The translations under genes and the position numbers were made by a program. This document shows, piece after piece, positions 12,734 through 41,850 of a stretch of DNA of 64,000 nucleotides. Each line of letters opens with the position of its first letter. The first letter of the stretch is position 1. The notes beneath the pieces were generated by a model. It searched no databases and was not told where the DNA came from. It saw only the letters and a list, made by a program, of their open reading frames with translations. The DNA is from a virus (lineage: Duplodnaviria > Caudoviricetes): positions 224,001 to 288,000 of IMG/VR virus record IMGVR_UViG_3300037067_027616. The stretch is one strand, 5' to 3'.

Positions 12734-12827
12734 GGGTCATTCTCCTGTTCCAAAAACGTTGAAACGTTGTACTGAAAACTTTAGTGCCTACTAAACCAAT
12801 ATACTACCGTGCACGGACGGATTAAAG

Positions 12828-15407: not shown

Positions 15408-15632
15408 CTATTTACCTTTTCTGAATATTACTTTGTACCCCGCGCCAGCGAGGTTGAAGAAAAGAAGAAGAATGGCGGCCACTGACACTGTGTATATCAC
15501 AGCCACATAAACGGACGTGATGGTTTCGAGCATCGACATGAGTTTGTCGTTCTTCAATGCCCAGATGGCAGCTGCAGTAACCACGACCAACCACGGACAG
15601 GCGAGAAGCAGACCAAACAAAACATTCTTCAT
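15408..15632 (-). CDS. Small membrane protein
   Basis: Two hydrophobic stretches; ATGA overlap with the MTase stop. Confidence 0.6.
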   Translation of the reverse strand: MKNVLFGLLLACPWLVVVTAAAIWALKNDKLMSMLETITSVYVAVIYTVSVAAILLLFFNLAGAGYKVIFRKGK

Positions 15633-17629
15633 GATACCCGGCTCCTTTTTATATATTTGTCAATTCTTGAACCTATCCAAGACATCACAGTCACTGCCAT
15701 ACTATTTCCGATCGCTTTATATCTAGGTCCATCGGGACAGAGATCCGCCGGCTTGCCTTTCCATGATATTTTTGTGTATCCGCGAGGGAATCCCATTAAA
15801 GCCTCACATTCCTCCGGAGTTAGGCGCCTGACACAAAACGATTCAGGCGTACGTGCGAGCAACAATGGATCTTGGTCACCTCTGTCAGCTTCTTTGGTCA
15901 GTGGTGGGCAGACATTTGATGGCGCCCCGTCTTTATCTCGCGTGTAATGACTTGGTTTGAACGATACAGTTTCCGTATCAGCCATTGCCACAGCGTTGAC
16001 GTGAGCGCACGACAAAGTGTGCATGGGGTCACCTTCATCCCCCACACCAACACCTTGTCTGTTCATTTCGTCTTTTTTATCCGGGTCACGTCCTGCGTTT
16101 CTCATGTCGATAGGGTAGACGGCATGTGTACCATGACCGGGGTGTGTACCTGGGGCTACGCACGGCGCCTGCTCCTCGGAAAAACCAATACCTTCTGCTT
16201 TTTGAGAAAGGTCACAACCGTACGCAACGCCTTGGGTCGCTGCAGCATCTATCGTGTAGCTTACACCATCTTCATTCCATCCACGACCGTTCTGTTTTTT
16301 GTCCATTACCCGGACGTCTTGGAGCGCTATGACATGTGGTATGGCATTGATACACATTCCGCGTTCGTCACCCATACCGCCGGCCTGCAGACTCATAGCT
16401 GTTTCTCCCACAGTTCCATTTCTAATATCACAAGCCATTGGTTCAGCTGTTTTGTTATTTTCAAGGCAACAAACTGCTTGACCTCTATCGCTCATAGGAT
16501 TGGCAGGGATGGTGAATGCCAAATCTTCACTCACACTGACACCGGGGTCGTCTCTGTCACCATTGAGTTGCATCACCACCGCCGGCGGGTGAGCAGTGGA
16601 AGCTATAGGGTGACACGGATCCCCTTCTTTCGGGTGACTATAATTTAACGCCGATGTTATCTGTGTCGTGTCAAATGGAAGAACCCTTCTGACAGGTATC
16701 AAGTTTTGCGTTTCGTTGTGGGGTGTCCATCCTTGGCTTACCCCGGGGAATTTGGAAGTCAGTGTAGCCGCAGTTTCGTTTATAGGTTCTGGCCTCATCA
16801 CAAGTGGAAGATTGTTTCCACCTGTACCGGCTTTTGCATTCAACTGTGGGCAGACACTGACTTCTTTTATACGACTGTCTTGCCCATGGTTCTCGTAGAC
16901 GGTTACTGTTTCATCTCCTTGGCCGCGTATTCCAGAGCCATTTTCAGTTGTGGGGGCAACGTTTTTCCACGGCGTTCTGATCGGCGGAGTATCCCGGCGG
17001 CAGCTTTCCCACTCAAATAAAATTTCTTGGGGATGGAACCAATCTCGAGGACCTGAGATAAGGAACACACGCTTGCGGCGTTGGGCCAGATTGAAATATT
17101 GGGCATCGAGGCATCTCCACGCGGCTGACCTTTGGGGTCCAAGCACAAAACCAGCGTCCTTCCACCTTCCCCCTGGCGGCTCAAGTGGCACATCTTCTCC
17201 GACAAGTGCTCCCAAAAGACATCCGAAGGCATTGTCTTTTGTGCTGAGGACTCCTGGGACGTTTTCCCAGACGGTGATGACTCCCGGCTCTCCTCGAACA
17301 AGTCGTACGTCGTCAATTGCATTGGCTATCCTCACATAAGTTAAGGCCAAATTTCCTCGAGCATCCCCAAGGGATTCCCTAGTTCCCGCAATAGAAAAAC
17401 TTTGGCATGGAGTCCCCCCTACAAGTACCTCTGGTGCAACGACTTGTGAGGTTTTTATAAGGTTCTCTAATTGGTTAATATCACCGAGATCTGGTACGCC
17501 CGGGTAGTGTTGCGCGAGCACGGCTTTCGGGAACGCCTCTATTTCGGAAAACCACGCGGGTTCCCACCCAAGATCGTGCCAAGCCACGGTAGCGGCTTCT
17601 ATACCACTGCACACGCTTCCGTATCTCAT
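15629..17629 (-). CDS. C5-cytosine DNA methyltransferase (alpha polypeptide) with expanded variable region
   Basis: SVCSGI, GGTPCQSFS, WENVPG, QRRKRVF, RRLTPEECEALMGFP, YKAIGNS. Confidence 0.92.
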   Translation of the reverse strand: MRYGSVCSGIEAATVAWHDLGWEPAWFSEIEAFPKAVLAQHYPGVPDLGDINQLENLIKTSQVVAPEVLVGGTPCQSFSIAGTRESLGDARGNLALTYVRIANAIDDVRLVRGEPGVITVWENVPGVLSTKDNAFGCLLGALVGEDVPLEPPGGRWKDAGFVLGPQRSAAWRCLDAQYFNLAQRRKRVFLISGPRDWFHPQEILFEWESCRRDTPPIRTPWKNVAPTTENGSGIRGQGDETVTVYENHGQDSRIKEVSVCPQLNAKAGTGGNNLPLVMRPEPINETAATLTSKFPGVSQGWTPHNETQNLIPVRRVLPFDTTQITSALNYSHPKEGDPCHPIASTAHPPAVVMQLNGDRDDPGVSVSEDLAFTIPANPMSDRGQAVCCLENNKTAEPMACDIRNGTVGETAMSLQAGGMGDERGMCINAIPHVIALQDVRVMDKKQNGRGWNEDGVSYTIDAAATQGVAYGCDLSQKAEGIGFSEEQAPCVAPGTHPGHGTHAVYPIDMRNAGRDPDKKDEMNRQGVGVGDEGDPMHTLSCAHVNAVAMADTETVSFKPSHYTRDKDGAPSNVCPPLTKEADRGDQDPLLLARTPESFCVRRLTPEECEALMGFPRGYTKISWKGKPADLCPDGPRYKAIGNSMAVTVMSWIGSRIDKYIKRSRVS
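16903..17322 (-). CDS. Nested out-of-frame methyltransferase beta polypeptide (M.EcoHK31I-type)
   Basis: 139-aa ORF inside the MTase in another frame, GAGGA RBS, C-terminal LSQVLE...KFYLSGKAAAGILRRSERRGKTLP. Confidence 0.65.
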   Translation of the reverse strand: MQLTTYDLFEESRESSPSGKTSQESSAQKTMPSDVFWEHLSEKMCHLSRQGEGGRTLVLCLDPKGQPRGDASMPNISIWPNAASVCSLSQVLEIGSIPKKFYLSGKAAAGILRRSERRGKTLPPQLKMALEYAAKEMKQ

Positions 17630-17997: not shown

Positions 17998-18098
17998 GGT
18001 GACCCCTTCAAGATTGACCTTCCTACACAATATACTAACGGTTTGCGGATTTTTAACAAAAACCTGAAATAGTCACCCCCCTCCCTCTCCCCGTAATA

Positions 18099-18152
18099 AG
18101 ATAGATCTTTACGAAGTAAAGAGATATCTGTTTGCTCCGAAGGAGCAACAGA
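18099..18152. other. Two adjacent C-GAA-G triloop hairpins, candidate replication origin element
   Basis: TCTTTAC-GAA-GTAAAGA and TGCTCC-GAA-GGAGCA at the divergent strand switch. Confidence 0.5.
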
Positions 18153-18183
18153 AGAAACTACTGATACCATAGCCAATACAGAA
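18148..18183 (+). repeat. 36-bp direct repeat, copy 1
   Basis: ACAGAAGAAACTACTGATACCATAGCCAATACAGAA, identical to 19001-19036. Confidence 0.95.
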
Positions 18184-18262
18184 GGGGGGAAGACTGAATG
18201 TTAATCTTTAGGATCCAAGCATTATATTATAATGGTGAACATCAATCCTTACGGAGGGGCCA

Positions 18263-18628
18263 ATGATTATTGTAGTGACGTCACCTGATAAGATTTCCAT
18301 CAACATGTTTGTGGACTATGTAATGAAACAATCCATAAAGGATTCAGTTTTCATAAACTTGAACGGACTTTTGTCAGAAGACGCCCTCATGCTTATAGTG
18401 AATGATGCTTTTAACAGGCATCCGAGTAAAGATATCATATTCAAGCACAAGACAAATAAAAAATATGTCCCCGCGAAGATACCAAAGGCCCTTTTTGAAA
18501 AGGCTGATTCCATAATAGGTTTTGGACTATACAGCAACCATGCTGAAGTAGTGAAATCCTTCCAAGGGTGGACGGATTCTGTGGTGTCTTCTTATCACAG
18601 TTACATTGAAAATATGAACAAGGTTTAG
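18263..18628 (+). CDS. Hypothetical protein
   Basis: GGAGG RBS; AT-rich 121-aa ORF between the two repeats. Confidence 0.7.
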   Translation: MIIVVTSPDKISINMFVDYVMKQSIKDSVFINLNGLLSEDALMLIVNDAFNRHPSKDIIFKHKTNKKYVPAKIPKALFEKADSIIGFGLYSNHAEVVKSFQGWTDSVVSSYHSYIENMNKV

Positions 18629-18691
18629 CCTGCTAAAAATTATCTTCAAATAAAAGGTTAAAAAAGAAATGTGCAATAGTATATTCATATT

Positions 18692-18945
18692 CGTGACAGT
18701 CGGAGTTTTCAGGTGCCAGACATAACACCTGTCTGTTTGTCACAGATTCATCGTTGCCGCTTACCCGCTATGGTAGCCGGAGCCGAAGGATCCCTGGTAA
18801 GGGTCATAGGTGAAAGCAAGCGGCGGGGAAGGATTGCCGGAAGGGGGCCTGCGGCTACGAAAATATCCTCGCCACTCCCAATTGCGGGAGGGTTTGAATT
18901 GCCCTCAGGACGCTTCCCCGAGCGGGGAGGAGCCGTAGGCCTTAA
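18692..18945 (+). ncRNA. Candidate structured non-coding RNA
   Basis: GC-rich intergenic block with several nested stems, some needing G-U pairs, just after a TAGTATATT motif. Confidence 0.45.
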
Positions 18946-19000
18946 GCCGTAAGAAGTTGTCTTTTAACTACTTACGACGGACGACAAAATGGAAAAAATC

Positions 19001-19036
19001 ACAGAAGAAACTACTGATACCATAGCCAATACAGAA
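19001..19036 (+). repeat. 36-bp direct repeat, copy 2
   Basis: Identical to 18148-18183. Confidence 0.95.
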
Positions 19037-19103
19037 AAAATCGAATTTGTTTGGTCATCGACCAGACACCAAAAGTTTGATAATCGATCTTGGAGTCCCA
19101 CCT

Positions 19104-20099
19104 ATGTTTGATAGAATAGTTGGACATAGGGAAGTGTTGTCCATGCTTCGAAAAATGTTGATTGACCGTAGTCCTGATGGAGTTTACCTTTTTCAAGGAC
19201 CAAAGTCAATCGGCAAACACACAGTCGCGCGTGAATACGCGCGACTGTCCGTGTGTTCCGGGACTATGGAACAAGGTTGCGCCTGCGACAATTGTCGTTT
19301 GTGGCCTTCGGTTCCAGACTATTTATCCATAAATGACAGTCAGAAAGTCTTTAAGGTTGATGACGCAAAGTCTGTAGATACTTTTCTGTCCCTTGTTCCT
19401 TATTCGGCGCCACGTCGGGCTGTCGTCATAGATGATGCCGATAGAATGAACAAACAGGCTTCCTATAGTCTTCTTAATACACTTGAGGAAGCAGGGGACA
19501 GGTCGGTAGTGATACTCGTGAGCAGTGATGAAAATCGGATACCGATGCCGATCGTTTCAAGATGTATCCCTGTGCAATTTGGTCCACTCTCACAGCAGGA
19601 GGTTTCCGACATTCTCTCCATGCAAGGCCATCCCCGCATGTCTGTCGAGGACGTTTGCAGGGCTATGCCGTGTTTCAGCAGTAGTGTACTGAGGGATTTT
19701 ACGTCATATGCTTCCTACATGAAGAAGATGCCTTCCATCTTGAAATCAATGTCGAGTGGATCCGATGAGGATGCCCTTCAATCAGCTTCAGAAGCAAATG
19801 AAGCCGGTCATTCTGTGCATTTCACGGAATCCATGGTTTCCATGTTGTGTGACATTATTAAGACACACTATGATCGCCCAGAAGCGGTCGCGAGTCTGTC
19901 CATGGCTAAAGAAATAGAGGTGTTGACTGAAACTTGGTCGGACGAGGTCTGCATAGCATCGTGTGCCAGGCTCGGAGATGTGCTTGATGCCGCGCGATCT
20001 CCTTTAAATTTGAAGGTAGGCCCGAGGCTCCTTTCTGCTGTTTCCTGGATGTCCCTTTATGTTTCACAGTCTTTGGCGAGAAAAAGGATGGTCAAGTGA
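19104..20099 (+). CDS. holB: DNA polymerase III delta-prime-like clamp loader subunit
   Basis: MFDRIVGH, YLFQGPKSIGK, Zn module, PD, IDDADRM, LLNTLEE, IVSRC. Confidence 0.85.
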   Translation: MFDRIVGHREVLSMLRKMLIDRSPDGVYLFQGPKSIGKHTVAREYARLSVCSGTMEQGCACDNCRLWPSVPDYLSINDSQKVFKVDDAKSVDTFLSLVPYSAPRRAVVIDDADRMNKQASYSLLNTLEEAGDRSVVILVSSDENRIPMPIVSRCIPVQFGPLSQQEVSDILSMQGHPRMSVEDVCRAMPCFSSSVLRDFTSYASYMKKMPSILKSMSSGSDEDALQSASEANEAGHSVHFTESMVSMLCDIIKTHYDRPEAVASLSMAKEIEVLTETWSDEVCIASCARLGDVLDAARSPLNLKVGPRLLSAVSWMSLYVSQSLARKRMVK

Positions 20100-21031
20100 G
20101 TACCTGTGGTAAGATGATAGCATCCGGCAAGCGAAGATTCCTTGTAGATGCAAAAGAACCATCGCTCGTGCCAGACCTTCTGGATTCGTTAAGACAGGAG
20201 TTCCCGGGATGCAGACTGTCCATACATGAGGACCCCTTGTCATTTTCGTCCGCGTCCATGGCGGGGGACATGTTCCTCGGGGACGGTATGAAGATTACAG
20301 TTCTTTGGGATTTGTCTGAAGAATCTATGAAGTCGTTGGAGTCCATCCTCGATTTCACGTCAGATGATGTCCTCATGGTAGTGCAACGTAAGTCAATTCC
20401 CAAGGGGCGCCTGTACACGAGAATGAAAGCTGAATGGGAGGTCATCACACTCGAACCCCTTGATGACCGGGCGTGTGAAGCGTATGCTGCGGCTGCTTTG
20501 AAGAAAATTGGATGTAAATTTTCCCCTGAAGTACCTTCTGTCATAACCGATAGAAGGGGGCGGGATTTGCCGGCCATCAGGAATGAGGTAAAAAAATTTT
20601 CACTCCTTGGCAAGCCAATCGACAAGGATACGGCCGCCAAGTTGGTGTGTGGTAAGGAGAGCGTGAAGGTTTTTGATCTGGCGGACGCTGTGTTGCGGCG
20701 CAGATGGTCACAGTCCTGTGCTTTGGCGGCGACACTCCCGGAGAATGACTTGATAGGGTTCTTACATGCTGTCCAGACGCAGTGCACGAAGCTTTACAAG
20801 GCGGCGTCACTTAAGGAACAGGGTATGGCGCCGGATGACATCGCCAGCATGCTTGAAGTTCCTGCGTATATAGCCAAGACAAAGATAGTACCTCTTGCAT
20901 TGCAAATGGGGCGCAACAGGATACTGAAGATGATCGATGCCGTCCACGCCGCCGATGTTACCGCCAGGACATCGAGGATCCCAAAACGTCTTTTGATGGA
21001 GAGTGTGGTTATCAAGTTGTTAAAATCATAG
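20096..21031 (+). CDS. holA: DNA polymerase III delta-like clamp loader subunit
   Basis: DMF clamp-binding-like motif, G.DL..IRNEVKK, VFDLADAV, collar ending LMESVVIKL. Confidence 0.75.
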   Translation: MSTCGKMIASGKRRFLVDAKEPSLVPDLLDSLRQEFPGCRLSIHEDPLSFSSASMAGDMFLGDGMKITVLWDLSEESMKSLESILDFTSDDVLMVVQRKSIPKGRLYTRMKAEWEVITLEPLDDRACEAYAAAALKKIGCKFSPEVPSVITDRRGRDLPAIRNEVKKFSLLGKPIDKDTAAKLVCGKESVKVFDLADAVLRRRWSQSCALAATLPENDLIGFLHAVQTQCTKLYKAASLKEQGMAPDDIASMLEVPAYIAKTKIVPLALQMGRNRILKMIDAVHAADVTARTSRIPKRLLMESVVIKLLKS

Positions 21032-41821: not shown

Positions 41822-41850
41822 AATATACTAAAATAAAAAGGATTTGTCAA
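41822..41850 (-). promoter_or_regulatory. Sigma70-type promoter
   Basis: TTGACA-17 bp-TATATT on the minus strand. Confidence 0.75.

Follow-up and report, generated by a model that had tools for sequence, protein, structure and literature searches.

A conserved structured element of a new RNA family, upstream of the clamp-loader genes and beside a probable replication origin of huge phages

Introduction

What is the role of a strongly folded, apparently untranslated stretch of DNA placed immediately ahead of the clamp-loader genes of a huge phage? The locus lies in a 466,729-bp virus record, bases 224001-288000 of which form the 64-kb stretch analysed here (hereafter the window, whose coordinates are used throughout). 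A reading made from the letters of the DNA without database searches (the sequence-only reading) had proposed that positions 18692-18945 hold a highly structured non-coding element and had interpreted it as a new phage non-coding RNA or a replication primer RNA. To our knowledge, a large structured RNA that belongs to no assigned family is a rare find, and every one solved to date has brought new biochemistry to light; we also know of almost nothing that has been established about how huge phages start and regulate replication. A covarying RNA in an apparent origin, upstream of a clamp loader and flanked by co-evolving twin sequences, offers a testable entry to huge-phage replication, and such an element may link the start of replication to expression of the replication machinery.

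Results and discussion

A conserved element ahead of holB

The element lies in a 478-nt gap between a 121-aa ORF and the start codon of a holB-like gene (ATG at 19107). As the sequence-only reading had seen, this is a GC-rich island in AT-rich flanks (GC content of 0.555 at 18700-18899 against 0.35-0.40), and it starts 7 nt after the TAGTATATT box at 18677-18685. Folding of the plus strand gave a minimum free energy of -117.6 kcal/mol (z = -3.4), equalled by none of 100 shuffles, and the minus strand folded less strongly (z = -2.75). The principal features are:

18263-18628, plus strand: 121-aa ORF between c1 (see below) and the RNA, clade-restricted
18657-18685, plus strand: predicted promoter of the RNA, with a -35-like GTTAAA at 18657-18662, a 14-nt gap and TAGTATATT at 18677-18685
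about 18752-18976, plus strand: RNA core, helices P1-P8 and a possible pseudoknot
19107-20099, plus strand: holB-like clamp-loader ATPase gene (Pfam PF13177, 3.5e-29; PF21694, 1.2e-10), the first well-supported gene downstream of the RNA
20096-21031, plus strand: holA, directly after holB, with synteny kept in all relatives

Twelve homologues of HolB, at 57-74% identity, were found in a large protein collection and their contigs were compared; two pattern scans contributed one further lineage. The element was found in 12 distinct relatives, all of them large-phage metagenome contigs, and its position is constant in all 12, between an ORF of about 123 aa and holB and downstream of a conserved promoter. 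Gene order is the same in every relative contig, running from a minus-strand C5-methylase and small ORFs through the ORF of about 123 aa and an uncalled gap of 450-715 nt to holB and holA. The gap sequences of the relatives align well, with a promoter-like box pair at a fixed distance ahead of the first helix. Within the 467-kb genome itself, nhmmer detected the element as a single copy.

Comparison of 18600-19000 with the phage GenBank collection by blastn gave no matches, and tblastn with HolB against the same collection returned distant relatives only (at most 31% identity). HolB peptide patterns in viral contigs led to one distant locus (L002), without the RNA. Scanning with DNA patterns identified one true new member (L018) and seven chance matches in viral contigs and only contigs of the same clade among metagenomes; among at least 120 matches listed from cellular genome contigs, no bacterial locus was real by nhmmer. 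On these sequence searches, the element appears to be confined to a clade of roughly 460-kb phages.

Family assignment and coding potential

The sequence-only reading could match the element to no known RNA class, and the searches agree. No Rfam 15 covariance model reached its gathering threshold in the 64-kb window, none matched in 11 relatives, and the sensitive mode applied to 18500-19150 gave chance-level matches only (E 3.6-8); the range compared included tmRNA, RNase P, 6S, SRP, riboswitches, ribozymes and GOLLD/ROOL. ARAGORN found neither a tRNA nor a tmRNA in the window, and we found nothing covering the element among described families or in the literature. The element is a new RNA family, absent from Rfam, in an unusual setting. 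An idea that the stretch after P6 forms a T-arm, as in a tmRNA, was dropped because it conflicts with P6, which covaries.

Could the region encode a protein instead? A 79-aa ORF with a GTG start does occur in the window at 18713-18952, but no reading frame is open across all relatives in the RNA region, indels are not multiples of three, the ORF has no Pfam match and substitutions in the stems are compensatory, so that the comparative data refute a coding role and we give it practically no credence. We are highly confident that this structured element is real, conserved, non-coding and specific to one strand, and that its family is not in Rfam. The earlier proposal of a new phage non-coding RNA is borne out insofar as the element is conserved and covarying, shares no reading frame, has its own promoter and belongs to no Rfam family; these properties are compatible both with a free-standing RNA and with a 5' leader of holB-holA.

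Secondary structure

The sequence-only reading had suggested collecting homologues upstream of holB and looking for covariation, and the 12 relatives do show it. Eight helices (P1-P8) are backed by the comparison. Of the 53 nested pairs, 29 show compensatory changes, and the observed covariation score was above that of every one of 500 shuffles. RNAalifold recovered P2-P8, and the long-range helix P1, which closes domain 1, was spotted by eye. Because P1 was out of register by one column in one subclade, a covariance model (R1) was built and the sequences were realigned (alignment A5). The parts of the structure are:

18693-18743, plus strand: P0, an optional 5' hairpin whose apical stem-loop is nearly invariant; found in the window, L003, L017, L010 and L007
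18752-18859, plus strand: domain 1 (P1-P5), 26 pairs in alignment A5, 93.2% paired, 15 compensatory
18752-18760 with 18851-18859, plus strand: P1, 8 of 9 pairs compensatory
18764-18769 with 18822-18827, plus strand: P2
18776-18778 with 18815-18817, plus strand: P3
18782-18784 with 18809-18811, plus strand: P4
18792-18795 with 18800-18803, plus strand: P5
18837-18851, plus strand: P2/P1 junction with the invariant 11-base run CCGGAAGGGGG (invariant columns in alignments A1, A2 and A3)
18871-18893, plus strand: P6 hairpin, 8 pairs, 94% paired, 2 compensatory
18913-18930, plus strand: P7 hairpin, 7 pairs, 94.5% paired, 4 compensatory
18934-18943, plus strand: 3' strand of the candidate pseudoknot Px, pairing with 18844-18853
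18948-18976, plus strand: P8 hairpin, 12 pairs, 88% paired, 8 compensatory

For domain 1, the observed values were matched by none of 500 shuffles, and slid controls were only 40-54% paired. Compensatory pairs make up 14 of the 27 in P6-P8, and the covariation score of the whole structure (P6-P8 with Px) was again reached by none of 500 shuffles. P8 is not followed by a U-run and a terminator scan called none there.

The 3' part of the P2/P1 junction is also the 5' strand of Px, a candidate helix of 8-10 bp (92% paired, one compensatory pair) that would be a pseudoknot because it crosses P1; we propose it tentatively from the alignment. In sequence, 18934-18940 is similar to the 5' strand of P8 (18948-18954); both segments can pair with 18970-18976, and both follow the changes that it undergoes from genome to genome. 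An alternative helix between 18934-18940 and the 3' strand of P8 (seven pairs, 74% paired, one compensatory pair), in which one position follows changes in both partners, is likewise put forward tentatively. The opposition of Px and P8 to this alternative helix hints, weakly, at a switch.

Many of the invariant bases lie in junctions and not in stems, a pattern typical of ligand- or protein-binding RNAs, and many may appear invariant through shallow divergence because the clade is narrow. Many conserved G-U pairs are specific to the plus strand.

Every stem listed in the sequence-only reading is present in the window sequence, and about half of them hold among the relatives. CCCT/AGGG, CTCCC/GGGAG and TCCCC/GGGGA correspond to P5, P6 and P7 and are supported in the comparison with the 12 relatives. 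The hairpin formed by GTGACA/TGTCAC and CAGGTG/CACCTG is P0, which is real in 5 of 12 lineages and missing or replaced in the others, and the long GGCC helix (GGCCTGCGGCT/AGCCGTAGGCC) is kept tentatively as an 8-10-bp helix, 92% paired with a single compensatory pair. Three had to be replaced: GCCGCTT/AAGCGGC and CTATGG/TCATAG performed no better than shuffles and gave way to the long-range P1 and to P2-P4, and the alternative pairing CGGGGAAG/CTTCCCCG also fell within the range of shuffles. The region originally delimited (18692-18945) is real and stops short of the 3' end, as P8 (18948-18976) and an unstructured element (19001-19036) lie beyond it.

Promoter and a possible leader of the clamp-loader operon

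The promoter at 18657-18685, which a simple promoter scan also picks up, keeps its position in 12 of 12 relatives, 7-10 nt ahead of the first helix. Spacing between GTTAAA and the TATATT hexamer is that of the promoter family of this genome, GTTGACAAA-N12-TTAGTATATT, which has 29 sites genome-wide against about 4 expected; the genome has 29 TAGTATATT sites, with GTTGACAAA upstream at fixed spacing. The motif is a strong sigma-70-type consensus, to which the 29 sites come close. The strand of the sites follows gene direction and flips at the GC-skew minimum (see below). The sites in the window are:

12798-12806, minus strand: promoter-family site
18029-18037, minus strand: promoter-family site
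18677-18685, plus strand: promoter-family site, ahead of the RNA
41822-41830, minus strand: promoter-family site

We tentatively prefer to read the element as a new leader RNA that acts in cis on the clamp-loader operon and is set inside a conserved origin module; we regard this as a possible explanation and not an established one. A host-type (sigma-70-like) RNA polymerase would transcribe the element rightward from 18657-18685 as the 5' part of a message running into holB and holA. A factor would attach to the invariant core of the junction. It would be a protein (for instance the product of the neighbouring 121-aa ORF or a replication protein) or a small ligand, and its binding would act through mutually exclusive pairings, Px plus P8 or the alternative helix. 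The pairing state would then set the downstream unstructured site c2 (see below) and the holB message, with the result that clamp-loader synthesis would be tied to origin activity.

A leader is supported by the 5' position of the element on the operon strand, the promoter at 18657-18685, the covarying fold, the invariant junctions, the candidate alternative helices and a terminator scan that called nothing between the RNA and the holB ATG at 19107. Against it, there is no recognisable expression platform, as no U-run follows P8 and no sequestration of the holB ribosome-binding site is apparent; Px and the alternative helix have one compensatory pair each; and a pure leader leaves unexplained the identity of the two sequences c1 and c2 and the location at the skew minimum.

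Riboswitches and protein-binding leaders such as that of T4 gene 32, in which a pseudoknot precedes an unstructured binding region, resemble the element in lying in the 5' region of an operon, in their covarying stems and invariant junctions, and in having a folded domain followed by an unstructured stretch before the coding region, to which the element adds candidate mutually exclusive helices. The element differs from them in matching no Rfam family and in showing neither a recognisable terminator nor a ribosome-binding site that is sequestered. With about 225 nt and eight helices, it greatly exceeds the T4 gene 32 operator in size and, unlike in the T4 gene 32 leader, its unstructured stretch has an identical twin in origin DNA.

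A 40-aa ORF (18989-19111) overlaps the start of holB in the window and is disrupted in 6 of 12 lineages, where its ATG reads ATA or directly precedes a stop codon, or where the frame is shifted; its frame continues into holB in L013 and L005.

Origin context

The global cumulative GC-skew minimum of the 467-kb genome (49% GC) falls at 18092-18500 of the window and the maximum at the record ends, a pattern consistent with replication that proceeds from this locus in both directions. A second, diverged genome (G001; 182.7 kb, 62% GC) has its global minimum at 131,801 and the RNA at 131,098-131,220. The RNA therefore lies 0.2-0.6 kb from the global minimum in two genomes, and in both its predicted direction of transcription points away from the minimum. 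Because GC skew also follows gene orientation, we infer the origin here rather than map it; skew and gene orientation together make the locus a probable replication origin. GC skew of this kind has been reported for about 30% of huge-phage genomes (PMC7162821).

The dnaA gene (PF00308) was absent from the phage genome, with control genomes positive, and DnaA boxes occurred at chance level with no cluster at the locus. The elements of the apparent origin and the putatively transcribed twin of one of them are:

18073-18148, plus strand: origin-core features upstream of c1, comprising a C-tract at 18073-18092, hairpin A at 18101-18127 and, at 18132-18148, hairpin B, which has a GAA triloop
18148-18183, plus strand: c1, between two divergent promoters, at the GC-skew minimum
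19001-19036, plus strand: c2, an A/C-rich element of 33-36 nt, predicted to be unpaired, about 25 nt past P8

Hairpin A has arms of roughly 13 bp and hairpin B of 5 bp. Both are conserved in relatives, with 7 of 16 pairs compensatory, and both lie upstream of the two divergent promoters, outside the reach of any predicted promoter. They may be hairpins of the origin that form in single-stranded or cruciform DNA. The flanks of c1 consist of the C-tract and these two covarying hairpins before it and a G-tract after it.

Twin elements and a possible origin RNA

The sequences c1 and c2 form a perfect 36-nt direct repeat (18148-18183 and 19001-19036, 100% identical). Two copies are present in every relative, and neither a third nor an antisense copy occurs on either strand of the 467-kb genome. 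Identity between c1 and c2 is 0.93 within a genome versus 0.75 between genomes, and in all 12 genomes c1 has its nearest match in the c2 of the same genome. Where variation is greatest, agreement is still 0.91 within and 0.62 between genomes, a difference reached by none of 5000 permutations. Variation is periodic over 3 nt, with entropy about twofold higher at every third base. The mean predicted probability of being unpaired is 0.62 for c2 against 0.39 for the rest of the leader.

A small peptide gene with an EETTDTIANTE-like motif was considered for the twin element and rejected as a canonical ORF, as neither the start codon nor the frame is consistent: 9 of 11 c1 copies and 6 of 11 c2 copies lack a canonical in-frame start, and in six lineages the conserved AAATG before c2 is out of frame, directly followed by a stop, or replaced by ATA. 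The RNA at 18767-18775 shows complementarity to the element, with 88% pairing in an 8-nt window when all genomes are compared, but this value was unchanged by permuting genome labels and carries no signal of specific pairing. At 19040-19095, between c2 and the holB ribosome-binding site, an extra hairpin was seen by eye, the sequence of which differs among relatives while its pairing is kept.

The twins point to a second explanation, which we rate as possible but on the unlikely side. The element would be an origin RNA, in which a folded scaffold carries c2 as a single-stranded guide of 33-36 nt that anneals to the bottom strand of c1, or in which the hybrid persists on its own template, and the R-loop would either open the origin or act as the primer for rightward DNA synthesis. 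The need to pair would preserve the identity of the twin sites, and c1 and c2 do agree within a genome at the very positions that drift (0.91 versus 0.62). The explanation also gains from the predicted unpaired state of c2, the lack of a third or antisense copy, the G-rich RNA strand, the placement of c1 between divergent promoters and beside covarying hairpins and C/G tracts, and a skew minimum at 18092-18500 of the window, and about 0.6 kb from the RNA in the second genome, from which the RNA would be transcribed away. Precedents exist in ColE1 RNA II, the R-loops of T4 oriF and oriG, and the Tetrahymena 26T RNA with ORC. However, gene conversion or a single protein binding both sites would explain the co-evolution of the twins equally well, skew follows gene orientation and gives an inferred origin, pairing leaves the 3-nt periodicity unexplained, and no RNase H or processing site can be named.

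Like ColE1 RNA II and the T4 oriF and oriG transcripts, which prime through R-loops, the predicted transcript of the element would be promoter-driven, folded and G-rich, has a conserved secondary structure and would be made beside an inferred origin. Unlike in those systems, no antisense partner resembling RNA I, RNase H site or RNA-to-DNA transition is identifiable here, and the transcript apparently continues into protein genes. Action in trans would moreover be required because the complementary target c1 lies 0.85 kb upstream, a further difference from ColE1 RNA II and the T4 origin transcripts.

An RNA-guided origin, in which the 3' c2 of the scaffold pairs in trans with c1, the R-loop starts replication and help may come from a RecA-like factor that reads triplets (perhaps the 121-aa protein), is in our estimate rather unlikely. 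If it is true that the twins act by RNA:DNA pairing, this would be a new way to specify an origin; an RNA-guided origin would place such a mechanism in a virus of bacteria. The omega RNA of TnpB and crRNAs have a similar architecture, in which a scaffold folds and the single-stranded segment 3' of it has the sequence of a nearby DNA site, whereas the present locus has no adjacent nuclease or transposase gene and its neighbouring protein has 121 aa, so that the resemblance is one of layout.

One idea to account for the 3-nt period, offered by analogy, is a factor that may read a single strand in triplets, as DnaA reads DnaA-trios in the basal unwinding system of bacterial oriC (PMC8287927). The twin element resembles the DnaA-trio system (PMC8287927) in comprising about 11 trinucleotides with one tolerant position per triplet, beside G/C-rich tracts at an inferred unwinding site. 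Unlike that system, the phage has neither dnaA nor a cluster of DnaA boxes, its purine-centred pattern does not fit the TAG/NAN consensus and its second twin copy lies in a putatively transcribed leader; only the 3-nt periodicity is common to both.

The neighbouring protein and further alternatives

The 121-aa protein has only 19 homologues, none of them named, all on contigs that match the relatives in kind and in size range; eleven of these contigs were read. Pfam, PHROGs and the ESM Atlas gave no assignment. A confident AlphaFold2 model (pLDDT 90.9) has a minimal P-loop/RecA-like alpha/beta fold; the structural matches (RadA helicase, Z 7.6; T7 gp4 helicase and RecA, Z 6.8; RFC, Z 6.7) are weak, all below a trustworthy level, Foldseek against the PDB returned nothing at E <= 1e-3 and no Walker A motif was seen in the alignment. 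Going by this model, the protein may be a degenerate ATPase-fold replication factor.

A ribonucleoprotein, in which the element would be the trans-acting RNA subunit of a complex with the adjacent 121-aa protein and would serve a function unrelated to holB, seems to us unlikely. The two genes are always adjacent, both are present in the eleven contigs read, the other homologues of the protein lie on similar contigs, and the confident protein model shows a fold of the nucleotide-binding type. But there is no terminator to mark off a free RNA, the structural matches stay under Z 8 and are weak, neither a Walker A nor an RNA-binding motif was seen, and adjacency alone is weak evidence.

Still less probable is an antiterminator resembling HK022 put, which would modify RNA polymerase on its own nascent transcript to make it processive and so license the long rightward gene block. 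A host-type promoter does immediately precede the element, which stands where the rightward-transcribed half of the genome begins, but the element is present once per genome although 29 promoters share the motif, there is no sequence or Rfam similarity, and put is about three times smaller. We consider it very improbable that the element acts as folded single-stranded origin DNA (a priming or helicase-loading signal) and not as RNA, for although covarying hairpins exist in the apparently untranscribed origin core nearby, every relative has a conserved promoter 7-10 nt ahead of the first helix and the many conserved G-U pairs are strand-specific.

Other features of the locus

In one subclade (L005, 2341-2600; L013, 2515-2560; L015, 2532-2580), the ORF of about 123 aa is followed by repeated CCGTCCG...CGGACGG hairpins and then an A-run; these hairpins may be terminators or a repeat family. 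The C5-cytosine methyltransferase beside the origin shows only the methylase domain in its window copy (15629-17629) and is much longer in some relatives (L004, 1-1472; L010, 1-920; the P0007 locus), where Hint or LAGLIDADG matches in the long versions suggest a putative intein.
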